Shown: positions 3,308 to 64,000 of the stretch, piece by piece
How positions within the stretch are numbered: position 1 is the first letter of the stretch
How the letters are laid out: each line of letters starts with the position of its first letter
From: an uncultured Candidatus Saccharibacteria bacterium
Lineage (GTDB): Bacteria; Patescibacteriota; Dojkabacteria; CAZCSM01
Length of the DNA: 64,000 nt
NCBI GenBank assembly: GCA_964501355.1
Contig: CAZCSM010000002.1
Span: 5,884-69,883 of the forward strand
Direction: 5' to 3'
The notes under the pieces: model-generated
The model's database searches: none
The model's input: the letters and a program-made list of their open reading frames with translations, nothing else
What the model was told of the DNA's origin: nothing
Made by a program: the position numbers and the translations under genes

Positions 3308-4576
3308 ATGAATCTAATTGATCTACAAAATTTCTTGATTGCCATTGCGGTTGGTGGGATTATCGGTTTGGAACGCGAGATTGGTAGAAGAGAAAAGAAA
3401 GATGCAATTAGTTTTGCCGGTCTTAGAACATTTATACTCGTTAGCTTCTTTGGTGCCCTTAGCTACTTTATGGGGGAAAAGCTAAATCAGCCGATACTTC
3501 CTGCCGTCGGTTTCGTGATTTTTTCATTACTAATAATAGTCTCCTATTACATTTCAGCGCAGAAAGGCTTTTGGGGAATTACCACAGAATTAACAGGACT
3601 TCTCACGTATCTTTTAGGCGTACTTGTAATGCAGGCAGATTATCAGGTCTATGCAGTAATCTTTGCTGTATTAATAACAATACTTCTCGCATTCAAGAAA
3701 TACGTTCGTCGATTTATTCAAAAGACAAAAACTAAAGAATGGTATGATACGATGAAGTTCGCATTCATAGCATTCGTCATTCTGCCCTTATTGCCAAATC
3801 AGGGTTTCGGACCTTATGAATTTTTCAATCCATATCAAACATGGTTGATGGTTGTTTTCGTTTCGGGTTTATCCTTCGCCGGTTACTTCGCAGTCAAATA
3901 TTTCGGCACGAGAATTGGTGTTAGCTTGTCCGGACTTCTTGGCGGAATAGCTTCGAGTACTGCGGTTACTACATCAATGTCTCATCGAAGCAAAGATGTT
4001 AAGGAAAAAGATTACAAGCCATTTGTAATCGCCACTGTTCTTGCTTGTAGCATCATGTTTGTTCGTGTAATTCTGGAAGCCGCAACAATTAATCAGGAAC
4101 TTGCACTGATCCTTCTTTTCCCAACGGCCATTATGTTTCTCGCAGGAATTGTTCCAATTCTACTTTGGTGGAGAAAGGGGAAAGAGAAAAGTGATAAAGA
4201 ATTAGACCTTCCAAGTCCTTTCCGGTTACAACCGGCGATTGCGTTTGCTGCAATTTATACATTTGTTCAACTTGTTGTTAATGTATTAGTTCATGAAGGT
4301 GTTGGTCAAACAGGAATAATTTTTACAAGTGTTATTGCAGGAATTACTGATGTTGATGCAATTACCCTTTCTCTTTCCCGCTTCGCACAAGAGGGTTCAA
4401 TTACAATGGACTCGGCTGTAAATGGAATTCTGGCGGCTCTGTTTACAAATACAATTGTTAAGGGCGGAATTGCATGGTTTTGGGGAGGAAAGGAATATAG
4501 AAAAAAAGTAGCGATGATTTTATTCGCGATATTACTGATAGGAATCTGCTCCATATTTATTTTAAGAGTTACTTGA
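3308..4576 (+). CDS. MgtC/SapB-family membrane protein with DUF4010-like C-terminal half
   Basis: N-terminus AIAVGGIIGLEREIGRREK matches MgtC family signature; ~10 predicted TM helices over 422 aa. Confidence 0.6.
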   Translation: MNLIDLQNFLIAIAVGGIIGLEREIGRREKKDAISFAGLRTFILVSFFGALSYFMGEKLNQPILPAVGFVIFSLLIIVSYYISAQKGFWGITTELTGLLTYLLGVLVMQADYQVYAVIFAVLITILLAFKKYVRRFIQKTKTKEWYDTMKFAFIAFVILPLLPNQGFGPYEFFNPYQTWLMVVFVSGLSFAGYFAVKYFGTRIGVSLSGLLGGIASSTAVTTSMSHRSKDVKEKDYKPFVIATVLACSIMFVRVILEAATINQELALILLFPTAIMFLAGIVPILLWWRKGKEKSDKELDLPSPFRLQPAIAFAAIYTFVQLVVNVLVHEGVGQTGIIFTSVIAGITDVDAITLSLSRFAQEGSITMDSAVNGILAALFTNTIVKGGIAWFWGGKEYRKKVAMILFAILLIGICSIFILRVT

Positions 4577-8136: not shown

Positions 8137-8508
8137 ATGGTTAGTAACAAATCTCTAAAATTTGAAGATTTGGAAGTTTGGAAACTTTCTCAAACGTTAT
8201 TCCTAGAGCTGTCGGATATCTTTTATTTGAAATCTTTCCACAATTACTCTTTCCAAGATCAAATTATGAGAGCAGCAATTTCTATTAGTAATAATATTGC
8301 CGAAGGTTATGGACGTGGTGGGAAAAAGGAGCTTATCCGATTCTTGTTTATAGCCAAAGGTTCATGCGAGGAAGTTAAGAATATGATATATTTGGCGTTT
8401 TCTTTAAAATATATCTCGGAAGAACAGAAATTGGAATTTTTGCAGAAAACGACACAATTGAGCGTAAAGCTTAATAATTTTGTCAATTATTTAAAGAAAA
8501 AGGTCTGA
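8137..8508 (+). CDS. four-helix-bundle protein (TIGR02436 / 23S rRNA intervening-sequence protein family), copy 1 of 3
   Basis: 123 aa; motifs LEVWKLSQ..., ISISNNIAEGYGRGGKKELIRFLFIAKGSCEEVKNMIYLA shared with paralogs at 39080..39463 and 45574..45936. Confidence 0.75.
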   Translation: MVSNKSLKFEDLEVWKLSQTLFLELSDIFYLKSFHNYSFQDQIMRAAISISNNIAEGYGRGGKKELIRFLFIAKGSCEEVKNMIYLAFSLKYISEEQKLEFLQKTTQLSVKLNNFVNYLKKKV

Positions 8509-13093: not shown

Positions 13094-13295
13094 TATTACT
13101 TTTGTAGCCTAGAATCCCATTTGTCATACTTCGCCAAGGCTTCGTATGACATTTTCCCTTAACAAGGGAAATCTAGTAACCAAAAGCTCTGGGGGGAATG
13201 AGTGTCCTCCAAGCACGAACTTTTTAGAAATAGCAACCGACATCATTCGCCCCAGACCCCAGGTTTGAACAATCGAATACAGATAACAAGGGGAA
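13094..13295 (+). ncRNA. copy B of repeated structured element family (expanded 5' region)
   Basis: contains gtaaccaaaag, long-range helix ggggggaatgagtg...catcattcgcccc, gaaatagcaaccgac, tail cgaatacagataacaaggggaaaa. Confidence 0.45.
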
Positions 13296-13343
13296 AACAC
13301 CGGGGTATGTGTCAGGAATTGTAACTGTTTAAGATAACTTAAT

Positions 13344-16480: not shown

Positions 16481-17494
16481 ATGGCAAAGCGAGCATTAAT
16501 TACAGGATTAACAGGTCAAGATGGTTCATACCTAGCAGAACTCTTACTTGAAAAAGGATATGAGGTCGGAGGAATCGTTCGAAGACTCAGCACCCCGAAT
16601 TATTGGAGAATTGAAGGCTTTTTCGAAAAACTCAAACTTTATGATGGTGATTTAACTGATCAGAATTCTTTGGATTGGGCTGTTCAGGATTTTCAACCTG
16701 ACGAAGTCTATAATCTTGCTGCACAGTCATTTGTAAAAACAAGTTGGCAGCAACCATTGGCTACTGGTGATGTAACGGGAATGGGTGTTGTTCGGATGCT
16801 TGAGGCGTTAAGAAAGTTTTCTCCAAAAGCTAAATTCTATCAGGCTTCTACAAGTGAAATGTTTGGTAATCATGGAGCTGATTGTACACTCAATGAAGAA
16901 TCGGGATTTTATCCGACAAGCCCATACGCCATTGCAAAATTATATGGACATTATTCTGCAATCAATTATCGCGATAGCTACGGAATGTTCACGAGTTGTG
17001 GAATTTTATTCAATCACGAATCACCACGACGAGGCGTTCTGTTCGTAACCAGAAAGATTACTGACGCGGTAGCGCGAATTAAACTAGGACTTGCTGATCA
17101 TATCTCACTAGGATCTCTTGATTCTACAAGAGATTGGGGATATGCAAAGGATTATGTGAAAGCAATGTGGTTGATGCTTCAGCAGGATACGCCCGATGAC
17201 TATGTCGTTGCGACGAACAGATCTATTTCTGTAGGAGAATTCGTGGAAGCCGCTTTCAAGGCAATTGGTGAAGATGATTGGAAGAAATATGTTAGAAAGG
17301 ATCCGAGGTTCTCTCGACCATCAGATTTGAAACATTTGCGAGGAGATTATTCAAAGGCAAAAAAGAAACTTGGTTGGGAGCCGGAAACTTCTCTTGAGGA
17401 GCTTGTCGAGATGATGGTGAAAAAAGATATTGAAAATCTTGAAAACATGCCGGAGTCGGAAAGGCGAATAAATAAGAGTGAGTTTATTATTTAA
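16481..17494 (+). CDS. gmd: GDP-mannose 4,6-dehydratase
   Basis: KRALITGLTGQDGSYLAELLLEKGYEV is the canonical Gmd N-terminus; 337 aa. Confidence 0.85.
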   Translation: MAKRALITGLTGQDGSYLAELLLEKGYEVGGIVRRLSTPNYWRIEGFFEKLKLYDGDLTDQNSLDWAVQDFQPDEVYNLAAQSFVKTSWQQPLATGDVTGMGVVRMLEALRKFSPKAKFYQASTSEMFGNHGADCTLNEESGFYPTSPYAIAKLYGHYSAINYRDSYGMFTSCGILFNHESPRRGVLFVTRKITDAVARIKLGLADHISLGSLDSTRDWGYAKDYVKAMWLMLQQDTPDDYVVATNRSISVGEFVEAAFKAIGEDDWKKYVRKDPRFSRPSDLKHLRGDYSKAKKKLGWEPETSLEELVEMMVKKDIENLENMPESERRINKSEFII

Positions 17495-17566
17495 TTATAT
17501 AAATCACTAGTGTAGCCGTTATTTACGAATTAAGCTTTGTGTTTATGTATGAAGGATTTTAGTTGT

Positions 17567-17726
17567 GTTACTTTTGGAAACAACGCCCACAAGGGGTGCA
17601 CGAAGTAACCAAAATTTTTGAAACAACAGAACGTCAACCAGGCACGACCATAAAACAGATTGCAACCGACATCTGTTGTTTCAAGCTTCAACGGGTAACC
17701 GACCGAATACAGGTAACGAAGGGAAG
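17567..17726 (+). ncRNA. copy C of repeated structured element family
   Basis: 5' hairpin gttactt...aagtaac, helix ttgaaacaacagaacgtc...gacatctgttgtttcaa, cagattgcaaccgac, tail cgaatacaggtaacgaagggaag. Confidence 0.45.
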
Positions 17727-17806
17727 GAGTTAATCTTAAGATGTATGAAGAATGTTTATAGGGTAGAGATAAAATTTATCCTATGATAGTTCACTTAATC
17801 TAAATC

Positions 17807-21107: not shown

Positions 21108-21169
21108 TGTAGAGTTATTGAATTGCTGTAATAATTTATTCTATGTCATAATCAGTTGATTTGTTTAAT

Positions 21170-21390
21170 GTAAGTAAATTACAAATTACAAATAACAAAT
21201 AAATCTCAAATCACAAATTCAAAATACCAAACAATACACACTACTGTTATTAACAAGATTATTTAGATTCGTTCTTGATACTTCTACAACCTCAGTACAA
21301 GTTTTTGAATTTTGGTAATTTTTAGTGAGCTCATCAAACTATTGTAATTTGTTTGGAAATTGAAATTTGGAATTTGATGCTTAACCACAA
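21170..21390. repeat. AT-rich modular inverted repeat pair upstream of GT2 gene (modules caaat/ccaaacaat ... atttgtttggaaattgaaatttggaatttgatgctt), no ORF between the arms
   Basis: right arm 21345-21390 matches arms at 42055-42100 and 45960-46000; left arm is a degenerate reverse copy. Confidence 0.5.
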
Positions 21391-21504
21391 TTTGTCGAGT
21401 TTTTGATTTTTTGTTTTAATTCATGTGTCCAACCAGAACATAAGCTTTTTGGAAAAAGAATTCTAGTGTATTATGTAAGAGGTTTTACTTTGAGATAAAT
21501 TGTT

Positions 21505-33401: not shown

Positions 33402-35741
33402 ATGAAAATAGGATTTCTTTGTGAACGAATGCTTCTTGGTTTCGGTGTTGATCTTGTAATTCACAATCAAGCAGAGTTACTGGGTCAGATGGGTCATGAC
33501 GTTACAGTTTACACTTTGCGAACGGATGAAACTTTTAATAATAAATATTATCGAATCATCAAACTCAATTCCGGATTGCACCTCAATCCTCTCAAAACAG
33601 AGCTTGGAGTTGTAAAAAATACCGCTAGATTTCTTAACAATCAAGATGTCGATGTTTGGATATCTGAAACGTACCCATTCCATATATTGACATGGTTTTT
33701 GAAGAAACCCGTCTTCATAATAGAGTATGGCACAAGTTCAAGTGAAGGAATGAAGTTTAAGCAAAAGATAAATTTTTTCTATCAGAAATATGTTGATAGA
33801 TTATTATTCTTCCCTTTTTCAAAAAAGATAATAACAATTTCACAATATTTGAAAGATGCTCAGGTTCCTTTCTATTTACGACATAAGGCTATTCCTCAGC
33901 ATTTAGGAGTAGATCATTATATTAATGATTTCAAGGAAAGGAAAGGCAACTCATCTGCATTGAAAAAAGATTTAAAGTTGAACAAGGATGATTTCGTTTT
34001 GCTTTATGTAGGCAGATTGAGACATGAGGCTCAGCCGTATAAAGGTGTTGCTGATTTGATTGAAATATATCAGCAGGTTAAAAAGAAAAATTCAAAAGTA
34101 AAGCTGATAATGGCAGGTTATGGAGATGAAGAGGATAAAAAGAATTTGGAGAAAAAGGGAATAATTGCGTTACCTTGCGTTCCCAAAGAGGATCTAGAAG
34201 AATTATACGATTTGTGTGATTTATGTGTTTCTGCAACTAAGTGGGAGGGATTTAATCTTCCTATGTTTGAAGCACAGACATTCGGTAAAGTTCCGGTGAT
34301 TTATAATATCGGGCCTCATCCGGAACTGATGAATGATGGAGAACATGCTTTTCTTGTTAATGATCAGGATGAATTTATAGAAAAGGTTCTTTTGCTATCA
34401 AAGGATGAAAATTTGAAGAAGTCTATGGAGAAAAAGGCAATTGAACATTCTTCCAATTTTACATGGAAGAAAAATGTGGAGAAATTTGAAAAACTATTGA
34501 GGAAAGAGGTAAAGATAAAAAAGGAATATAAAAAAGATTGGGTTGATCTGATAACTCTTAACTATGATGGAAAATCAATAACGGAAGACTTGTTTAATTC
34601 TCTGAAGAAGAACAAATACAAAAATGTTAATTATGTAATGGTTGATAATGGATCTCATGATGGTTCCGCCGATTACATAGAAAAGAAATTCCATAATGTA
34701 AAAGTAATTCGTTCAAATAAGAACCTATTTTTTCCAAGAGGAAATAATCTTGCTATAAAACAAACGAACTCAGAATTTATAATGTTGGTTAACAATGACA
34801 TTATTGTCGAGCCGGATGCAATATCAAAAATGGTGAATAGAATGAAAAGTGATCCAATGATTGTAGCGGTTGCAAGTAAGATGTTGTCAATGAAAAATAA
34901 AAGAGTGATAGACTCTATTGGAACTGTGATGATGCCCGATGGTTCACCTTTTAATCGCGGAATTGGGCAGATTGATTTGGGACAATATGATAAAAGCGAA
35001 GATGTATTTGGTGCTTGTTTTGGCAGTGTTTTGCTGAGAAGGTCTTCGTATGAAAATGTAGTTGGTCCGATGGACAATGATTATTTCGGATATTTTGAAG
35101 ATGTAGATTGGTGTTTCCGTGCTAATATGTTGGGATATAAGATTGTCACTGAACCGGAAGCTATTGTTTATCACGCTCACAGTGCAACTTCCGCAAAGAG
35201 GAATTATGATTGGAAATTTTTCTTAATTCAGAGAAATTTTATCTGGACTATTCTCAAAAATTTTCAAAGAAATAAGGCTCTTCGAGGTGTAGTAAGAAGG
35301 TTGCTTGCATTATCAAGGGAGTTTGTTTTCTCCAAATCGCTTAGTAGGAAATGGGCAAGCTTGAAAGTTATTATGGCAACTATAATTTGTTCTCCGAAGT
35401 TTCTTGTAAAGAGATTAGATTTGCAAAGGAAAAGAATGGTCTCGGATGCTGAAATCTTCCGATTTTCTATTAACGAGTTTTCCTTCTTTGAACCAGTTAA
35501 ATATGAACCTATTTATTCTCTTGATAATTTAGAGAAGACTTTTGAAAGACTTGCTAATTTGAACAAAAAAGATATAAAGATTTATAAAGAAATCAGAAAT
35601 TTGAATCTGACAAAATCTGCTTCCGATGGACAGTGGGATAAAAAAGCAATTAAACTTTTGAAATCTTTGGAAAGTAGAATTGGTCGAGAAGACACAAAAA
35701 GATTTTTGGAATTTATTGTCGAGAAGAAGTCTTGGATATAA
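33402..35741 (+). CDS. two-domain glycosyltransferase: N-terminal GT4 (GT-B) fused to C-terminal GT2 (GT-A)
   Basis: EGFNLPMFEAQTFGKVPVIYN (GT4) in first half; ITLNYDGK..VMVDNGSHDGS..LVNNDIIVEPD (GT2 DxD) in second half; 779 aa. Confidence 0.7.
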   Translation: MKIGFLCERMLLGFGVDLVIHNQAELLGQMGHDVTVYTLRTDETFNNKYYRIIKLNSGLHLNPLKTELGVVKNTARFLNNQDVDVWISETYPFHILTWFLKKPVFIIEYGTSSSEGMKFKQKINFFYQKYVDRLLFFPFSKKIITISQYLKDAQVPFYLRHKAIPQHLGVDHYINDFKERKGNSSALKKDLKLNKDDFVLLYVGRLRHEAQPYKGVADLIEIYQQVKKKNSKVKLIMAGYGDEEDKKNLEKKGIIALPCVPKEDLEELYDLCDLCVSATKWEGFNLPMFEAQTFGKVPVIYNIGPHPELMNDGEHAFLVNDQDEFIEKVLLLSKDENLKKSMEKKAIEHSSNFTWKKNVEKFEKLLRKEVKIKKEYKKDWVDLITLNYDGKSITEDLFNSLKKNKYKNVNYVMVDNGSHDGSADYIEKKFHNVKVIRSNKNLFFPRGNNLAIKQTNSEFIMLVNNDIIVEPDAISKMVNRMKSDPMIVAVASKMLSMKNKRVIDSIGTVMMPDGSPFNRGIGQIDLGQYDKSEDVFGACFGSVLLRRSSYENVVGPMDNDYFGYFEDVDWCFRANMLGYKIVTEPEAIVYHAHSATSAKRNYDWKFFLIQRNFIWTILKNFQRNKALRGVVRRLLALSREFVFSKSLSRKWASLKVIMATIICSPKFLVKRLDLQRKRMVSDAEIFRFSINEFSFFEPVKYEPIYSLDNLEKTFERLANLNKKDIKIYKEIRNLNLTKSASDGQWDKKAIKLLKSLESRIGREDTKRFLEFIVEKKSWI

Positions 35742-36936
35742 GCTTCTTAACCTTGTTTTTTAGAGCGTTAACATTAAAGACTTTGTTCTCTAGAATTTCT
35801 ATTGTCTTTCTTTGATTATTAATTTCTCCGTCTAAGTGGGCAACGGCATTTTGGAAATTTTCAATATGCTGATTCTTTTCTTCTAGTTCTTTTTGAAAGT
35901 TTTCAATATGCTGATTTTTTTCTTTCAGTTCTTTTTGGAAGTTTTCAATATGCTGATTTTTTTCCTTCAGTTCTTTTTGGAAGTTTTCAATATGCTGATT
36001 TTTTTCACTCAGTTCTTTTTGGAAGTTTTCAATATGTTCATTCTTTTCATCTATTGTTTTTACAAGATCTGGTATTTGTGAGGTTTCTTTCTGTAGATTC
36101 TCTATATGTTTCTGTTTGGCTTCTGCTTCTTTCAAAAGCTTTTGAACTAGTTCTTCTTTCTCTTCGATTATCCTTGTTTGGTTTTCTACTAATTGGTGAA
36201 CCTCAAGCATTGGCTTTTTGTTTTGCGGAAGATCGCTAATTCCCTTTGTTTTTTCTGCAGAGATTTTGAATATGTATTGATATGCAATCGATTCCTTTTT
36301 AGTAATTAGATTAATGAACGCGGATGTTGTTTTTAATCCAAGCTTTTCAAGTTCTTCATTTAAGTACTTTGTTGGAAAATCGAAAGTTGTGTAATGTAGT
36401 TCATTAACAAACAGGTCTGCTTTTTTGATGAGATTACTGAATTTCTTTAAAGTGAAATATTGAAGATGTGTGTCATCAAGAATTCCTCTTTCTTCCGATT
36501 CGAAATCGCCTCTCAATAGTTCCAACCTGATTGATACGTGTGCAATGTTTGGAATAGACACAATTATGAATCCCTTCGGTTTTATGTATGATTTCAGTCT
36601 CTTCAGTAACTCCAGAGGATTCTTTAAATGTTCAAGCAAATCTGCGACTATAATATAGTCGAAACTATTTTTTTCGAACTCTTTTTCCCATATACTATCT
36701 TCAACATTCGCGATGACAACCTTCTTACACACCTTCTTTGCGATTTCCGCATCTTCCTTTGACAACTCTATTCCAGAGACTTGGCAGTTTTTTTGTTGAA
36801 TTAAATATTCCGCAAGGTAGCCGCTACTGCACCCTATATCAAGTATTTCGGCACCATCATCAATCATATTAACAATTTTGGTAAGCGAAACATTTTCATT
36901 TGAAACATCAACTTTTTGGTGGGAATATTTGCTCAT
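35713..36936 (-). CDS. SAM-dependent methyltransferase fused to a tandem-repeat coiled-coil tail; WbdD-like chain terminator/ruler candidate
   Basis: N-terminal ILDIGCSSGYLAEYL..IIVADLLEHL MT motifs; C-terminal ~150 aa of 15-aa repeats EKNQHIENFQKELKE x4-5; last gene of the wzm-wzt operon. Confidence 0.65.
   Translation of the reverse strand: MSKYSHQKVDVSNENVSLTKIVNMIDDGAEILDIGCSSGYLAEYLIQQKNCQVSGIELSKEDAEIAKKVCKKVVIANVEDSIWEKEFEKNSFDYIIVADLLEHLKNPLELLKRLKSYIKPKGFIIVSIPNIAHVSIRLELLRGDFESEERGILDDTHLQYFTLKKFSNLIKKADLFVNELHYTTFDFPTKYLNEELEKLGLKTTSAFINLITKKESIAYQYIFKISAEKTKGISDLPQNKKPMLEVHQLVENQTRIIEEKEELVQKLLKEAEAKQKHIENLQKETSQIPDLVKTIDEKNEHIENFQKELSEKNQHIENFQKELKEKNQHIENFQKELKEKNQHIENFQKELEEKNQHIENFQNAVAHLDGEINNQRKTIEILENKVFNVNALKNKVKKLISKTSSRQ
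35845..36048. repeat. tandem 45-nt repeat (about 4.5 copies) encoding the coiled-coil repeats of the WbdD-like gene
   Basis: plus-strand unit gttttcaatatgctgatttttttcyttcagttctttttggaa repeated head-to-tail. Confidence 0.85.
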
Positions 36937-39079: not shown

Positions 39080-39463
39080 TTACAAATTTTTAGATAAATA
39101 TTTAATCAAGTTACTTATCTTCACTGATATGGTAACACAATTCTTTCGAAGTTCTTCTGATTTTGCAGAACCTATAAAGTTTTGATTCTCTGCAATATGC
39201 AACATGCTTCGCACTTCTCCGCAAGATCCTTTGGAAATGTATAAGAATCTTATAAGTTCTCTGTTGCTTTGTCTTTCGTAACCTTCAGCAATGTTATTGC
39301 TTATTGATAAAGTTGCTCTTAATATCTGATCTTTGAAATAGTAATCCCTAAATTTCTTATCTCCAAATATCTGAGATATGTCTATGAATAATTGTATTCC
39401 TAACTGCCAAATTTCTAAATCTTCAAAATTTGTTTTACTATGTTTGATCGATGTTTTATCCAT
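39080..39463 (-). CDS. four-helix-bundle protein (TIGR02436-like), copy 2 of 3, inserted between wzm and wzt
   Basis: LEIWQLGIQLF..ATLSISNNIAEGYERQSNRELIRFLYISKGSCGEVRSMLHIA; flanked by inverted repeats aaaacatagttcaaac / gtttgaaactatgtttt. Confidence 0.75.
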   Translation of the reverse strand: MDKTSIKHSKTNFEDLEIWQLGIQLFIDISQIFGDKKFRDYYFKDQILRATLSISNNIAEGYERQSNRELIRFLYISKGSCGEVRSMLHIAENQNFIGSAKSEELRKNCVTISVKISNLIKYLSKNL

Positions 39464-41924: not shown

Positions 41925-41959
41925 TTATAATTTCAAAGTGATACTAGTTTTTTAAGAAA

Positions 41960-42145
41960 TTCCAAATTCTAAATTACAAATATCAAATAAATTACAATAT
42001 ATAAAATCTCAAAATAATTATTTGTAGGTTTTGTGATTTGGCGAATTAATGTTTGAGATTTGTTTGGAAATTAAGATTTTGGATTTGGTGCTTTAAGATA
42101 ATGATTCTTATACATGGATTCCGTGTCGAGCACGGAATGACGATT
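41960..42145. repeat. AT-rich modular inverted-repeat pair with ~35-nt spacer (no cargo) followed by one gatcccgtgtcg-type palindromic unit, immediately upstream of GT4 gene
   Basis: aaattccaaattctaaattacaaatatcaaata ... gagatttgtttggaaattaagattttggatttggtgcttt; then ggattccgtgtcgagcacggaatgacg at 42116-42142. Confidence 0.55.
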
Positions 42146-45530: not shown

Positions 45531-45570
45531 ATCAAATTCCAAATTCTAAATAACAATTTCCAAACAAATC
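45531..45570. repeat. left AT-rich modular arm flanking the four-helix-bundle gene (contains caatttccaaacaaat)
   Basis: reverse complement of module atttgtttggaaattg found in right arm at 45965-45980. Confidence 0.55.
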
Positions 45571-45573
45571 ACA

Positions 45574-45936
45574 ATGACCAAAATCTCAAATAACAAACAA
45601 TATGATTTAGAGGAAAGAACTTTAGAATATGGTAAGAGAATTGTTAGATTCTGCAAATCTTTATCAAAAGATAAAATAAATTCTAGACTTTGTGATCAAT
45701 GTTTGCGCTCTGGAACATCTATAGGAGCGAATTATAGAGAAGCAAATGAAACAGAAACAAAAAAGGACTTTTTGTTTAGGATGAGGATATCTCGAAAGGA
45801 AGCAAAAGAGACGATTTATTGGTTACAATTAATAACAGAAGCAAATCTAGAACTAGAAAATAAGATTAAACCTTTGTTAGAAGAAACTTCTGAACTTCTA
45901 AAAATAATTTCGAGTATAATCGAGAAGTGTAAATAG
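45574..45936 (+). CDS. four-helix-bundle protein (TIGR02436-like), copy 3 of 3, between inverted AT-rich arms
   Basis: 120 aa; GTSIGANYREANETETKKDFLFRMRISRKEAKETIYWLQLI parallels paralogs. Confidence 0.7.
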   Translation: MTKISNNKQYDLEERTLEYGKRIVRFCKSLSKDKINSRLCDQCLRSGTSIGANYREANETETKKDFLFRMRISRKEAKETIYWLQLITEANLELENKIKPLLEETSELLKIISSIIEKCK

Positions 45937-46000
45937 TTTAGAATTTTGAATTTGTTATTTGATATTTGTTTGGAAATTGAGATTTTGGATTTGGTGCTTT
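45937..46000. repeat. right AT-rich modular arm (tttagaattttgaatttgttatttgatatttgtttggaaattgagattttggatttggtgcttt)
   Basis: near-identical to 42055-42100 and 21345-21390. Confidence 0.6.
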
Positions 46001-46046
46001 TTATTAAGTTTTGTATTTTGTGAATTGTTAATAAGTTTAATGCTAT

Positions 46047-47201: not shown

Positions 47202-47223
47202 TGTGTTCTAGAAAAATTGGTTA

Positions 47224-47362
47224 TGTTACTTTTGCAAACAAAAGTAACCAAAATTTCTGAAACAAACCAGTTCCGACAAATAGCAATCCGATACAATTAA
47301 CTACCGGAATGGCCCGTTTCAGACTTCATCGGTTAACAACCTAATACAAATAACAAGGGGAA
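47224..47362 (+). ncRNA. copy D of repeated structured element family; its 3' AAGGGG doubles as the ribosome-binding site of GT4 gene 47364
   Basis: gttacttttgcaaacaaaagtaacc hairpin, helix ctgaaac..ttccg / cggaa..gtttcag, caaatagcaatccgatac, tail ctaatacaaataacaaggggaaa-ATG. Confidence 0.5.
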
Positions 47363-47363
47363 A

Positions 47364-48503
47364 ATGGAATATGAAAAACAAAAATTGAAAGTTGCTCTTG
47401 TCCATGACTACCTCCAGTGGCACGGTGGTGCGGAGAAGGTTTTGGAGGCTTTGCATGAAATTTGGCCGGATGCTCCGGTTTATACTTCTGTTTATAATCC
47501 GGATACAATGCCGGATCTTTACAAGTCTTGGGATATCAGAACTTCCTTTATGCAAAAATTACCGTGGTGGAGCAAGTTTTTGAAACATTATTCCTTTCTT
47601 TATCCGATGGCTTTTGAGCAGTTCGACTTTTCAGAATACGACTTGGTCATTTCTTCATCTGCCGGATTTGCAAAGGGAATTATTACAAGACCAGAAACGA
47701 CTCATATTGCATATACTCATACTCCTCCTCGTTTCCAGTGGGGATATGCTACTGCAACGCGTGAAAAGCTAAACGGTTTTTACACAAACTGGATTTTGCC
47801 TCCGATTGATAATTACCTAAGGATTTGGGATCAATGTGCTGCAAAACGGGTTGATTATTTTGTATGTAATTCGAGAGAGGTACAAAAAAGAATTAAAAAG
47901 ATTTATAGACAGGATTCAACTGTAATAAATCCACCGGTCGAATTTGAACGATTTGCGGATCATGAATCGAAGAAGGAGAATTATTTTGTAACCATTGGCA
48001 GATTAGAAAGGTATAAGAATTTTGACTTATTAATAAAAGCTTTTAATAAACTTGGTCTTGATTACAAGTTAAAAATTATAGGTGGTGGAAGTGACGAAGC
48101 TTATCTTAGGTCGTTAGCACATTCAAATATCGAGTTTATGGGTCGCGCTTCTGACGATGATTTGACCAAGCTTTTGTGCAATGCAAAAGCTTTCATTTAC
48201 GCCGCAGAGGAAGATTTTGGAATTGTTATGGCGGAATCCTTAGCGGCTGGAACACCTATTGTTGCTTATGGAAAAGCGGGGGCGCTTGAAATTGTGGAAG
48301 AGAATAAAACAGGGGTGTTTTTCAAAGATCTTTCTGAAGAATCGATTGCTTCCGCGATTCATAATTTTGAAAAGATGGAATTTGATTTAGAGTATTGCAA
48401 AAAACAGGCCCAAAGATTTTCGAAGGAACGGTTTAAGAATGAAATAAAAAATTTTGTTTCAAAGTTGTTACAAAGTAGAAGCAAAGTAGATACAAATGTT
48501 TAG
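47364..48503 (+). CDS. GT4-family glycosyltransferase (paralog 2)
   Basis: KVALVHDYLQWHGGAEKVLEALHEIWPDAPVYTS...VAYGKAGALEIVEENKTG; 379 aa. Confidence 0.7.
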   Translation: MEYEKQKLKVALVHDYLQWHGGAEKVLEALHEIWPDAPVYTSVYNPDTMPDLYKSWDIRTSFMQKLPWWSKFLKHYSFLYPMAFEQFDFSEYDLVISSSAGFAKGIITRPETTHIAYTHTPPRFQWGYATATREKLNGFYTNWILPPIDNYLRIWDQCAAKRVDYFVCNSREVQKRIKKIYRQDSTVINPPVEFERFADHESKKENYFVTIGRLERYKNFDLLIKAFNKLGLDYKLKIIGGGSDEAYLRSLAHSNIEFMGRASDDDLTKLLCNAKAFIYAAEEDFGIVMAESLAAGTPIVAYGKAGALEIVEENKTGVFFKDLSEESIASAIHNFEKMEFDLEYCKKQAQRFSKERFKNEIKNFVSKLLQSRSKVDTNV

Positions 48504-53366: not shown

Positions 53367-54047
53367 ATGGAGATTATGTTGCCGATTATCCTCACTACGA
53401 TCCCTCTTGTAATTATTGCGAGTACTGTAATTGGAGTTGTTACTCTGCTAAAAAGAAAGAAGGAAGGTCCCGTTAACTTGGATTTTAAATTAGTCTTCAG
53501 AGTTTATTATTACATAATAATGTTTGCTTCAGTGGTATCAATCGGAATTGGAGGAATGTTTACACTCAAAAGTCTTTTTACTAATGTCTGGGGGAAAGAA
53601 TTTAGTTATCGGAAAGAGTATGTCTCAGAAGAATATTATACAAAACCAGTTCTTGAGGATGAAGTTGTTCGTGAACCGGAATATGAATATGTAAAAGATG
53701 TCGAGAAAAAGGATTTAATTTCTGGATTGAGCTACTTACTAATTGCGACTCCGATATTACTTTTACACGTGTATGGTTTGTCTCAACTGGAAAAGAGCGA
53801 CGGTGTGAACTGGCAGATTAAGAAAGTATACCTGATTGTTTCTTTGGTTGTGTTCTCGATGGTCGGTGTTATCTCTCTTCCCGTTGGAATTTATCAGACT
53901 TTACAGTTCTTCATTACAGAGCAGGCGGATGATAATTGGACCTCAATCGTTCCAGGTGAGTATCTCGCAACTGCATGTTCATTTGTCCCAATCTGGGTAT
54001 ATTATTTGATGAAGTTTAATAAAGTTGTATTGAAAACCAAGGATTGA
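53367..54047 (+). CDS. hypothetical multi-TM membrane protein
   Basis: 226-aa ORF, 4-5 hydrophobic helices. Confidence 0.5.
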   Translation: MEIMLPIILTTIPLVIIASTVIGVVTLLKRKKEGPVNLDFKLVFRVYYYIIMFASVVSIGIGGMFTLKSLFTNVWGKEFSYRKEYVSEEYYTKPVLEDEVVREPEYEYVKDVEKKDLISGLSYLLIATPILLLHVYGLSQLEKSDGVNWQIKKVYLIVSLVVFSMVGVISLPVGIYQTLQFFITEQADDNWTSIVPGEYLATACSFVPIWVYYLMKFNKVVLKTKD

Positions 54048-54072
54048 TAAATTGTGGGTTTTGGGGTAAAAT
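54044..54072 (+). promoter_or_regulatory. sigma70-like promoter for the glyQS T-box leader (TTGATA-17 nt-TAAAAT)
   Basis: -35 ttgata 54044-54049, -10 taaaat 54067-54072, spacer 17 nt; read directly. Confidence 0.4.
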
Positions 54073-54077
54073 CTTTA

Positions 54078-54270
54078 TATAAGCGATCGGGGAATACTGT
54101 GAAAGCCCGAAATAAATTGGCAAATCGATGAGAATAAATCCTGTGCTGAGCATTGTCGAAGCATTAAAGTGTCCTTGTCGCTCGGGTTTTCTGAGTGGAG
54201 GGGAATAAAGGTGGAACCACCGTGAATTACGGTCCTTGTTTGATTATTTATCAAGCAGGGACCTTTTTTT
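54078..54270 (+). promoter_or_regulatory. T-box riboswitch leader, glycine-specific (minimal glyQS type): specifier candidate GGC-A, antiterminator with UGGAACC bulge, overlapping terminator
   Basis: aaGG-UGGAACC-ACCG-ugaauua-CGGU-CCuu at 54208-54237 reproduces the A1/7-nt bulge/A2 antiterminator; bulge UGGA complements tRNA-Gly UCCA; terminator ggtccttgtttga-ttattta-tcaagcagggacc + T7 at 54231-54270; aauuGGCAaau upstream. Confidence 0.6.
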
Positions 54271-54349
54271 ATTCTTTAAACGAAAGCTATTATTTACTTG
54301 TTCGATTCCGTGTATATTAATAACGTATAAATTTTATTTTGTTGGCTCT

Positions 54350-54490
54350 GTTACTTTTGCAAACAAAAGTAACCAAAATTTCTGGGACAACCCAGTTCCG
54401 ACAAATAGCAACCAAATACAGATAACTACCGGAATGGGATTGGCCCAGGCCCCAACGGCTAACAACCTGATACAAATAACATGGGGAAAT
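54350..54490 (+). ncRNA. copy E of repeated structured element family, lying between the T-box terminator and the glyQS start codon
   Basis: gttacttttgcaaacaaaagtaacc, helix ctgggacaacccagttccg / cggaatgggattggcccag, caaatagcaaccaaatac, tail ctgatacaaataacatggggaaa. Confidence 0.5.
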
Positions 54491-54632
54491 ATAAAACATA
54501 ATTAGCAGATATTAATGAAAGTTGTTTTTAATATACAATTTTATACATCCACTCAGCCTGCCGGCCGGACAGGCAGGGGTGGTGGTTGGGTTTACGTTTT
54601 AGCGATTTAATTCTATTTAAGTTAATTTTATT

Positions 54633-56012
54633 ATGAACAAAAGTGCATCGTTAGAGAAAATACAATCTTGGGCAAAAAGAAAAGGATTTGTGTTTCCATG
54701 TTCAGAAATCTATGGAGGGTTAGCAAATTCTTGGGATTATGGTCCATATGGAGCGCTACTTAAGAACAATATTCGAGATTCATGGTGGAGACGATTTGTC
54801 GAACAACGTGAAGATGTAGTTGGACTTGATTCCAGCATTATTCTTAATCCAAAAGTTTGGGAGGCTTCCGGACATGTCGCCAGTTTCAAGGAAGCTTTAA
54901 TTGATTGTAAAAAATGTCGAAATAGAACTGCTGCGGAAAAACTTATAGAATCTGCAACAGGTGAAATAATGGATGGAAAGAGTGTTGAGGAGTTGAATAC
55001 TTTTATTCAAGAAAAAGAGTTGAAGTGTCCAGTGTGCGGATCTTTTGATTGGACTGAGGCAAGAATGTTTAGCAACCTGTTTGAAACTAGCATCGGTATT
55101 GTTAAAGAATCTGAATCAAAAGTGTACCTTCGAGGAGAAACTGCTCAAGGTATTTTCGTTAACTTCAAGCCAGTTGTTGAATCAATGCGGGTTCGAGTTC
55201 CTTTCGGAATTGCACAGGTGGGGAAGGCCTTCAGGAATGAAATTACAAAAGGGCAGTTCACTTTCAGAACTCTTGAATTCGAACAAATGGAAATTGAATA
55301 TTTTATTCATCCTGAATCTGATTGGGAATCTATTTTCGAAAGCTGGATGAATGAACTAACTGATTGGTATGAATCAATTGGTATTAGCAAAGAAAACATG
55401 CGGCAGAGAGAGCATGGTGATGAAGAGCGTTCTTTCTATTCAAAGCGAACCGTTGATCTGGAATATGAATTTGATTTCGGGTGGAAGGAACTATATGGGC
55501 AAGCATACCGAACTGATTATGACCTATCAAAACATACTGAATTTTCCGGAAAAGACTTGTCTTATAGAGATCCTAAAACCGGTGAGAAATATATCCCACA
55601 TGTTGTTGAACCTTCAACAGGACTTTCTCGAGCTATGCTTTGTGTAATGTATGATGCATATACTGAAGAAGATTTGGGGGATGGAAAGATGCGAACTGTG
55701 ATGAAGTTTGCACCAAGTGTTGCGCCGATTAAGGTTGCTATTCTTCCTCTTCAAAAAGACGATAATCTTCGTGCAAAATCAAGAGAAATTTTTGATGAGT
55801 TGAAGAAATCGTTTGTAGTTGAATATGATGATTCAGGGAGCATTGGTAAAAGCTATAGAAGGCAGGATGAAATCGGAACTCCGTTATGCGTTACGGTGGA
55901 TTTTGATTCTTTGGAAGATGGAGCTGTAACGGTGAGAGATAGAGATACAATGGCACAGGAGAGAATTAAGATTGAGGAACTGGAGAGGTATATTGCAGAA
56001 AAGGTAAAATAG
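54633..56012 (+). CDS. glyQS: glycine--tRNA ligase, alpha2 homodimeric type
   Basis: KRKGFVFPCSEIYGGLANSWDYGPYGALLKNNIRDSWW and class II motifs; Cys-rich insertion CKKCRN..CPVCGS; 459 aa. Confidence 0.85.
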   Translation: MNKSASLEKIQSWAKRKGFVFPCSEIYGGLANSWDYGPYGALLKNNIRDSWWRRFVEQREDVVGLDSSIILNPKVWEASGHVASFKEALIDCKKCRNRTAAEKLIESATGEIMDGKSVEELNTFIQEKELKCPVCGSFDWTEARMFSNLFETSIGIVKESESKVYLRGETAQGIFVNFKPVVESMRVRVPFGIAQVGKAFRNEITKGQFTFRTLEFEQMEIEYFIHPESDWESIFESWMNELTDWYESIGISKENMRQREHGDEERSFYSKRTVDLEYEFDFGWKELYGQAYRTDYDLSKHTEFSGKDLSYRDPKTGEKYIPHVVEPSTGLSRAMLCVMYDAYTEEDLGDGKMRTVMKFAPSVAPIKVAILPLQKDDNLRAKSREIFDELKKSFVVEYDDSGSIGKSYRRQDEIGTPLCVTVDFDSLEDGAVTVRDRDTMAQERIKIEELERYIAEKVK

Positions 56013-56018
56013 CTTAAT

Positions 56019-56046
56019 GTAGAGACGTAGCATGCTACGTCTCTAC
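56019..56046. terminator. 28-nt perfect palindrome gtagagacgtagca/tgctacgtctctac after glyQS stop; shares the arm aatgtagagacg with 1375-1406
   Basis: read directly; no T-run, so the terminator role is tentative. Confidence 0.4.
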
Positions 56047-56144
56047 GAGCTGTCTGGTAACAAATATTATAGGTTTGACATACATTTATATCCATGATAT
56101 AAAGGATACAATCTTAAATCGAGTATTTAAGAGGTCAAACCTTT

Positions 56145-56180
56145 GCCGCGAACGATATTCAACGTTCGCGGCTTTATTTT
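56145..56180 (+). terminator. rho-independent terminator
   Basis: gccgcgaacg-atattcaa-cgttcgcggc followed by TTTATTTT. Confidence 0.6.
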
Positions 56181-56249
56181 CTTCCTTTGTGAATGTATTG
56201 AAATTTTTGGTTCAATGCACGGCTTGACTCGTATTTTCGACAGTGTTTA

Positions 56250-63721: not shown

Positions 63722-63883
63722 TGTATTATCATTGGAAATTAAGTTAGTAATATTGTAGCAGAAATATGAAAGAGATGGGAGAGAAGAAAATATTGTATAA
63801 GTTGCGATACATGTTACGAATCGTAAATAGAGGACCTGCTTCAGAATAACGACAATTTTAGTAATCATACGAAAACAAAGTTC

Positions 63884-64000
63884 TTTCTCTCATACTTTTG
63901 AGACCAAAAGTATACAAAAGTCTTGGGGTGAATAAGTGCCCTTCGTACACGAACTAATTACAAATAGCAACCGGCATCATTCACCCCAAACCCCAGATTT
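63884..64000 (+). ncRNA. copy F of repeated structured element family, truncated by window end
   Basis: atacttttgagaccaaaagtat hairpin (compensatory A:T swap relative to copy A), helix cttggggtgaataagtg / catcattcaccccaa, caaatagcaaccggcatc. Confidence 0.45.

Follow-up and report, generated by a model that had tools for sequence, protein, structure and literature searches.

A structured repeat element between a glycine T-box terminator and glyQS in a Dojkabacteria-like genome

Why should a glyQS gene preceded by a T-box begin 362 nt beyond the T-box terminator, and what is the structured element that occupies much of this interval? Two readings had been raised for the locus: the element is a second regulatory layer stacked on the T-box, or it inserted into a pre-existing leader. 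The DNA analysed (the window, 64,000 nt, ~36% G+C) comes from an uncultured Patescibacteria genome, and the closest named homologues of its GlmS and some of those of its GlyRS are from Candidatus Dojkabacteria (57–67% identity). Among its gene products are DUF4012, DUF4013 and DUF5671 proteins, glycosyltransferase and sugar-nucleotide genes form a large block, and a Pfam scan of ~50 of its ORFs found no transposase, integrase or reverse transcriptase. A Shine-Dalgarno-like motif precedes only a handful of the 50 gene starts inspected, the upstream regions being A/T-rich, which implies that translation initiation in this lineage may proceed without dependence on Shine-Dalgarno pairing.

The glycine T-box and the long leader behind it

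The features of the glyQS region are as follows.

54044–54072, + strand: sigma-70-like promoter of the glyQS leader (TTGATA, 17 nt spacer, TAAAAT), from a consensus scan
54047–54240, + strand: glycine T-box leader, with the GGC specifier at 54119–54121 followed by A, and the AAAGGTGGAACCACCG core at 54210 with its UGGA bulge
54231–54270, + strand: intrinsic terminator of the T-box, a 14-bp stem and a T7 run, the 5′ arm overlapping the 3′ arm of the antiterminator
54271–54338, + strand: AT-rich spacer from terminator to element, unalignable to relatives, holding the left arm (54311–54324) of an inverted repeat
54339–54498, + strand: element copy E (covariance model 160.5 bits, E 1e-32)
54515–54610, + strand: putative small ORF of 31 aa (MKVVFNIQFYTSTQPAGRTGRGGGWVYVLAI), holding the block 54527–54556
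54546–54588, + strand: GC-rich imperfect hairpin inside the small ORF, with the palindrome core CCTGCCGGCCGGACAGG at 54557–54573
54633–56012, + strand: glyQS, class II GlyRS of 459 aa (HGTP_anticodon 1e-22, tRNA-synt_2b 2e-9)

The match to the Rfam T-box model (RF00230) runs end to end over 54047–54240 and scores 26.7 bits (E 7.6e-4), below the gathering score of 93. Orthologous leaders from relatives score 26.6–34.7 bits, the match being weak but significant in three of the five. Stem II is absent when the window T-box is aligned to the model, as is typical of glyQS-type T-boxes. The other features were read from an alignment of six leaders, which was too gapped for RNAalifold to return a consensus structure. 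The specifier stem-loop presents GGC-A at 54119–54122, and the aligned codons of the five orthologous leaders are GGC (three), GGA and GGG, all for glycine. The T-box sequence AAAGGTGGAACCACCG includes the UGGA bulge, and its core GGTGGAACC at 54210 is invariant in all six leaders. tRNA-Gly, with discriminator U73 and the end UCCA, fits such a bulge; the window itself contains no tRNA gene. The terminator hairpin (GGTCCTTGTTTGAT..ATCAAGCAGGGACC, 54231–54263, with the T7 run to 54270) and the antiterminator are mutually exclusive, since GGTCCTT forms both the terminator 5′ arm and the antiterminator 3′ arm (AAGG...CCTT); the fold that includes the terminator has a free energy of −31.6 kcal/mol. 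The specifier, UGGA bulge and competing arms, common to the five orthologous leaders, give strong comparative support for regarding 54047–54240 as a real glycine T-box despite the missed Rfam threshold, and uphold the T-box call and the terminator end (54270) of an earlier note on this DNA.

The T-box itself is of a known kind, and it is the host group that is unusual. A core-motif search found a T-box core upstream of glyQS in five of 80 diverse GTDB loci, of which two (L005 and L012, both 'Parcubacteria group' MAGs) were the only Patescibacteria. In these two the core lies 169 and 307 nt from the ATG, also further than the Bacillota norm of ~90 nt. A literature search found no article combining T-boxes with Patescibacteria or the Candidate Phyla Radiation. 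The locus documents a glycine T-box in a Patescibacteria lineage, the motif being rare in the group by this simple search.

Between the terminator end at 54270 and the glyQS ATG at 54633 there are 362 nt, and from the T-box core to the ATG 423 nt, compared with 106 and 108 nt in two relatives (L084 and L089) and 87–97 nt in three Bacillota. The earlier note had described a gap of 363 nt, several-fold longer than normal and containing a full element copy at 54350–54490; apart from one nucleotide this is what was found, the covariance model extending the copy to 54339–54498. Copy E comprises a P1 hairpin (54350–54373), a single-stranded CCAAAA, a long P2 stem (54381–54449) with a CA-rich loop of ~29 nt, and a CCCC at ~54451–54454 that pairs with GGGG at 54483–54486, within a GGGGAA motif ending at 54488. 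Its 3′ end is 134 nt from the glyQS ATG. A 14-nt inverted repeat (54311–54324 with 54524–54537; reached in 1 of 100 shuffles) brackets copy E, and E alone, and might set the insertion apart as an RNA domain of its own.

The small ORF beyond the element has six glycines, and the glyQS ATG lies 22 nt past its stop codon. Its 30-nt block (54527–54556) is similar to blocks in the leaders of two relatives, L087 and L088 (z 3.3 and 2.7), where it is likewise in frame with small ORFs. The window peptide FYTSTQPAG corresponds to FYTSAQGAG in L088 (MSFYTSAQGAGINP), with several third-position differences, and the L087 match is weaker. The similarity is suggestive only; the block may reflect a leader peptide or a motif at the RNA level, and it is a part of the long leader that an insertion does not explain. 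A further, improbable possibility is that the Gly-rich ORF encodes a true leader peptide, a translational glycine sensor added to the T-box. The GC-rich hairpin inside the ORF has no T-run after it and is therefore not terminator-like. It had been noticed before, at 54549–54572, a placement that is off by a few bases from both palindrome and stem.

The promoter at 54044–54072 is the only promoter-like site on the + strand between 53900 and 54700, and consensus scans of that strand found no promoter-like or terminator-like site in 54271–54632. Because copy E has no such site of its own, it would be transcribed only upon T-box read-through.

The repeat family and its fold

The family (~150–160 nt) was found by a direct-repeat search and alignment. 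A covariance model built from five copies detects exactly six in the window (80–169 bits), all intergenic and on the + strand, and the next best match scores 11 bits. Besides copy E these are:

1530–1689, + strand: copy A, past the hairpin downstream of gene 18–1364 and ahead of a convergent gene, with no gene downstream
13142–13305, + strand: copy B, upstream of a gene for a 220-aa protein without a Pfam match
17556–17735, + strand: copy C, between a GDP-mannose dehydratase-like gene and an epimerase gene
47214–47372, + strand: copy D, between two tandem GT4 glycosyltransferase genes
63880–64000, + strand: copy F, cut by the window end

Copy D exactly fills the 162-nt gap between its two co-directional genes, and coding sequence follows immediately. 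Copies A and C have 5′ and 3′ extensions in common (z 6.2 and 5.2). A 5′ extension of E looked like those of A and C by eye, and was rejected as not significant (z 0.5 and −0.3).

The common fold consists of a 10-bp P1 hairpin, the single-stranded CCAAAA, a long P2 stem whose CA-rich loop of ~30 nt carries a conserved AAATAGCAACCG or ATAACTACCG, and a 3′ part in which a short helix is formed by CYYC pairing with the GGGG of the motif AAGGGGAA. Over eight copies, 90% of the cells are paired and 15 of the 32 pairs show changes on both sides, with 12 of 18 in P2. Neither the covariation score nor the percentage paired was reached by any of 500 shuffles, and slid controls collapse. Mismatches of the G-U and A-C types number 12 and 14, which makes them uninformative as a guide to the transcribed strand.

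All nine copies seen, in the window and its relatives, are co-oriented with neighbouring genes, and those of the window are on the strand of positive GC skew. The genes downstream encode a hypothetical protein, an epimerase, a GT4 glycosyltransferase, glyQS or spoU, or there is none. At the 3′ end of the element, GGGGAA is accompanied by an ATG, which is the glycosyltransferase start codon in D (where the GGGG motif is 3 nt away) and the small-ORF start in E and L087. The motif was considered as a general Shine-Dalgarno site and rejected; it is unlikely to be a general ribosome-binding site because the genome is almost without Shine-Dalgarno motifs, which precede only the handful of genes mentioned above.

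In sigma-70 consensus scans of the A, B, C, E and F regions, no promoter-like site on the + strand adjoined a copy, and the search for terminators came up empty behind B, C and E. The element has no terminal inverted repeats, its 5′ end (TTRGYTNT-GTTAC...) and 3′ end (...AAGGGGAA) not being complementary, and only the internal hairpins are common to the copies. Direct repeats flank copies C (13 nt, 12 of 13 matching, 0 of 100 shuffles) and A (12 nt, 4 of 100 shuffles); none that is significant was found around B, D, E, L087 and L088. Several copies (E, A and those of L082 and L088) lie shortly past terminator-like hairpins or stop codons, and C and D follow stop codons. This positioning may reflect a target preference, or only the places where insertions are tolerated.

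Rfam 15 gave no match at gathering score anywhere in the window, and permissive scans over E, A and C returned weak matches to different, unrelated families on either strand. No match to the element was found by blastn in phage and plasmid collections, or by pattern scans of metagenomes (a collection that evidently lacks the JGI contig of L088) and a viral scan, and a full-text literature search on repeat elements and structured RNAs in Patescibacteria yielded nothing relevant. As far as these tools can tell, the family is undescribed.

Other repeats were observed in the same DNA. At ~1411–1440 and 56020–56046 of the window, genes unrelated to each other have near-identical palindromic hairpins (TGTAGAGACG...CGTCTCTACA) after their stop codons, and such hairpins also occur just past glyQS in L082, L087 and L088; they probably form a second, short repeat family acting as terminators. 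Three genes encode '23S rRNA intervening-sequence proteins' (PF05635), at 8137–8508 (+), 39080–39463 (−) and 45574–45936 (+). The last is flanked by two AT-rich repeat families (45534–45590 and 45959–46029) whose adjoining ends are, by eye, complementary. The same two families are adjacent at 41957–42123 and 21169–21412, with no ORF of at least 90 aa between them, and these pairs look like IVS-like hairpin cassettes in the intergenic DNA of the polysaccharide locus. At 35807–36100, six tandem 42-nt repeats lie inside a minus-strand ORF with a methyltransferase domain (35713–36936), and would encode a 14-residue peptide repeat.

Element sites in related genomes

No GTDB species representative was closer to the window than 59% GlyRS identity. 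The 80 glyQS loci taken from them (1.34 Mb) contain no copy of the element, the best being a single 25-bit match to the covariance model (E 0.02). Closer relatives came from a large protein collection: L081–L083 (89–90% GlyRS identity), L084–L086 (84%), L087 (79–81%), L088 (75–76%) and L089 (65–67%). All of these relatives are known from short contigs of metagenomes, recognised by one or two of their proteins; L081–L083 trace to SRR29243436, SRR29243437 and SRR29243440, L084 to JGI 3300015214, L087 to ERR15087793 and L088 to JGI 3300004318. A neighbour-joining tree of GlyRS forms a ladder, (((((window,L081),L084),L087),L088),L089), with L089 as outgroup. The distance from terminator to ATG and the state of the element in each leader are:

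Window: 362 nt, element present (copy E)
L081: 120 nt, no element
L084: 13 nt, no element
L087: 368 nt, element present (73.9 bits)
L088: 149 nt, no element
L089: 35 nt, no element

A glycine T-box with its terminator is found in all six leaders (specifiers GGC in four, GGA and GGG in one each) and the element in two of the six; the T-box clearly predates the element and evidently works without it. The order in L087 matches that of the window (terminator, element, conserved block, glyQS), but the flank between terminator and element is 36 nt long in L087 versus 68 nt in the window, and the two are unalignable. L088 has the small-ORF block without the element, and L081 and L084 have neither. 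In the L081 leader, at 1016–1170, the T-box sequence is separated from the terminator by an insertion of ~100 nt that holds two GC hairpins (GCGACAGACC..GGTCTGTCG and CCCGAAATCCCCGC..GCGGGAC..TTCGGG); its antiterminator region is interrupted or remodelled.

The earlier note had asked whether relatives have short, element-free leaders, and had taken the same element at the same place, with conserved sequence, as a sign of an ancestral part. Each outcome is seen in part: the leader is short and element-free in L084 and L089, while the longest, that of L087, carries a family member with 58% identity to E at the equivalent place, and L081, L084, L088 and L089 have none. Because of the L087 copy, the insertion may not be recent: it may be an old one that L081 and L084 have since lost. 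With such a ladder, a single early insertion that was then deleted in L081 and in L084 would be about as parsimonious as two independent insertions; the unalignable, unequal flanks and the pattern of identities described below lead us to favour the latter.

Presence of the element varies at three orthologous sites, namely the glyQS leader, the glyQS-spoU spacer and the dehydratase-epimerase junction. The glyQS-spoU spacer holds a full copy in L088 (71 bits) and the start of a copy at the contig end in L082 and L083; that of the window, L084 and L087 has no copy. The dehydratase-epimerase junction measures 312 nt with copy C in the window, versus 12 nt in L092, where the dehydratase is 88% identical and the gene order the same. 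L092 provides the sole clean empty site and is too diverged to map the junctions. For a further relative (L090, 95%) the GlmS neighbourhood was examined, and it did not extend to an element site. The contig of a 98%-identical relative (L091) stops, at 4146, 15 nt past the dehydratase stop (compare 17494–17556 of the window), and its other end falls a short way into the gene that follows copy B; both ends fit a picture in which short-read assemblies break at copies of the repeat family.

Copy E shows 85% identity to D, 73% to A and 69% to C, and 58% to the copy in the L087 leader; it is nearer to A, C and D than to the L087 copy in 99.5% of bootstraps. D and E are more alike than the window and L081 are in their T-boxes (73%) or at third codon positions of glyQS (60%); the split of those two lineages must therefore predate the making or conversion of one or both of these copies. 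Whichever of the two copies is older, copying has taken place within the window's lineage. The L088 copy groups with B and F, which makes the subfamilies older than the speciations.

A conserved small unit was also observed between glyQS and spoU (window 56060–56185; L082 2330–2495; L084 2940–3060; L087 5375–5450; L088 2140–2290). A sigma-70-like promoter (ATTATAGGTTTGACAT, 17 nt, GATATAAA) is followed by a variable middle and by AAGAGGTCAAACCTTT, after which come a GC hairpin and a T-run. Complementarity was seen between AGGTTTGAC, from the promoter region, and GTCAAACCT, close to the 3′ end. The unit has no Rfam match at gathering score, and looks like an unannotated small RNA gene.

Interpretation and comparison with known systems

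The best explanation, to which we give a probability of about 0.62, is that the T-box is ancestral and that a lineage-restricted repeat, copied within genomes, landed or was retained past its terminator without taking part in glycine sensing. Uncharged tRNA-Gly would pair with the GGC specifier and the UGGA bulge, stabilising the antiterminator and allowing read-through of 54231–54270. Copy E, having landed or been retained in a permissive stretch between the terminator and the proximal leader, would then be present as extra 5′ UTR in read-through transcripts only. Functionally it is most likely a passenger, and any effect as RNA, such as its stable hairpins stabilising or insulating the read-through transcript, would be secondary at most. 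What is shown directly is the anatomy of the T-box and its conservation, the membership of E in the family, the covariation of the fold, the variable presence of the element at three orthologous sites and the lack of promoter- or terminator-like sites; the mode of copying and the passenger role are inferred. Several features sit less easily with a passenger: the strong conservation of structure and single-stranded segments is more like a functional RNA than junk, all nine copies are co-oriented with neighbouring genes, and retention in both the window and L087, if it traces to a single old insertion, would hint at usefulness. Against mobility, no target-site duplication or terminal repeat is common to the copies. 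Insertion of a mobile family into a pre-existing leader, one of the two readings in the earlier note, is better supported than a second layer, with the qualification that one relative carries a family member at the equivalent place.

The element may instead have entered the leader once, before the window and L087 split, and been inherited vertically, its likeness to D, A and C being due to gene conversion or to E having been the source of a later expansion. We regard this as the less likely course. The order of parts is the same in both leaders, the 58% identity of their copies is close to that of the T-box part between the same genomes (56.5%), and L081 and L084 also lack the downstream block, so that a single deletion in each would remove both. 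However, the flanks between terminator and element (68 and 36 nt) do not align, the two nearest relatives have no element, and the two other polymorphic sites indicate that the family moves or is lost on this time scale. A second regulatory layer seems unlikely. It would be a cis-acting RNA module that binds a protein or ligand and controls the stability or translation of the read-through transcript, for example with the CCCC/GGGG helix hiding both the purine-rich motif and the site where the small ORF begins (54515), an ORF whose translation would be coupled to glyQS. The covarying structure with invariant single-stranded blocks would suit such a role, as would the sense orientation of copies always 5′ of or between genes, the GGGGAA and ATG at the element's 3′ end (gene start in D, small-ORF start in E and L087), the same leader position in L087, and the weak in-frame conservation of the small-ORF block in the window, L087 and L088. 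Yet four relatives with a T-box (L081, L084, L088 and L089) do without the element, among them the window's two closest, and L088 has the small-ORF block without it. The downstream genes are unrelated and copy A has none, the masked GGGG has no obvious translational meaning in a genome nearly without Shine-Dalgarno sites (and is only 3 nt from the ATG in D), and copy E ends 134 nt before the glyQS ATG, past the point of the T-box decision. These observations weigh against the second layer that the earlier note had offered as its other reading.

It is very unlikely that the copies are independent small-RNA genes, or a DNA-level signal such as a protein-binding or replication-oriented site, with their position in leaders incidental. 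Copy A, between a terminator-like hairpin and a bidirectional terminator and with no gene downstream, fits this, as do the placement of all copies on the strand of positive GC skew and the mismatch counts (12 G-U, 14 A-C), which favour neither strand as the one read as RNA, if any. A small RNA is opposed by the promoter and terminator scans, by the coding sequence right after D and by the exact fit of D into the 162-nt gap between co-directional genes. A bolder proposal, improbable but worth stating, is a new non-autonomous mobile structured RNA module of a Dojkabacteria-like lineage, without terminal inverted repeats, sense-only and preferring sites past terminators and gene ends, whose fold is active in mRNA and rewires glyQS and other genes. 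If that were true, the active fold might undergo self-cleavage or processing, capture a protein by binding or sequestration, or give ribosomes a landing pad where Shine-Dalgarno sites are nearly absent.

On the preferred reading, of a passenger past an ancestral T-box, a working riboswitch-type leader tolerates ~160–240 nt of foreign structured RNA just past its terminator, and the six related genomes form a natural with/without series for the element in a T-box leader. The covarying, orientation-specific family occurs in reduced genomes that are usually thought poor in mobile DNA. Should its fold have an RNA function, the family would stand as a class of regulatory or mobile RNA that is new; otherwise it serves as a useful marker for recent genome dynamics and is a source of breaks in metagenome assembly.

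Among known systems, the leader is the same as the RF00230 T-box of the Bacillus subtilis glyQS type in its glycine specifier followed by A, its UGGA T-box, its competing terminator and the class II GlyRS downstream. It differs in its score (26.7 versus 93 bits), in its Patescibacteria host (where most glyQS loci have no T-box core) and in having 362 nt, not ~15–40 nt, before the start codon. The element resembles riboswitch-like leaders with a sequestered RBS in being a covarying, multi-helix structure, with GGGG paired to an upstream CCCC/CUUC, that precedes a start codon in some copies. Unlike these, it has no single class of downstream gene, one copy has no downstream gene at all, Shine-Dalgarno sites are hardly used, and its presence varies at the same gene. 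A riboswitch or gene-specific leader is disfavoured by the want of a consistent downstream functional class, a stand-alone small RNA gene by the consensus scans (sigma-70 for promoters), which gave it no promoter (A, B, C, E, F) or terminator (B, C, E) of its own, and a MITE by copy ends that have no terminal inverted repeats. REP/BIME, ERIC/IRU, the Correia elements of Neisseria and RUP/BOX of Streptococcus are known to land in 5′ UTRs and to alter mRNA stability or processing. Compared by description, from general knowledge and not by sequence, the family is set apart from these repeats by having no terminal inverted repeats and no consistent target-site duplication, by its conserved single-stranded CA-rich blocks and by its sense-only orientation in nine copies. 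It is like them in being short, non-coding, multi-copy, intergenic, co-transcribed, rich in hairpins and patchy at orthologous sites, and it has the broad character of a REP/ERIC-like family, with six copies per 64 kb, all intergenic, covarying stems and three polymorphic orthologous sites.
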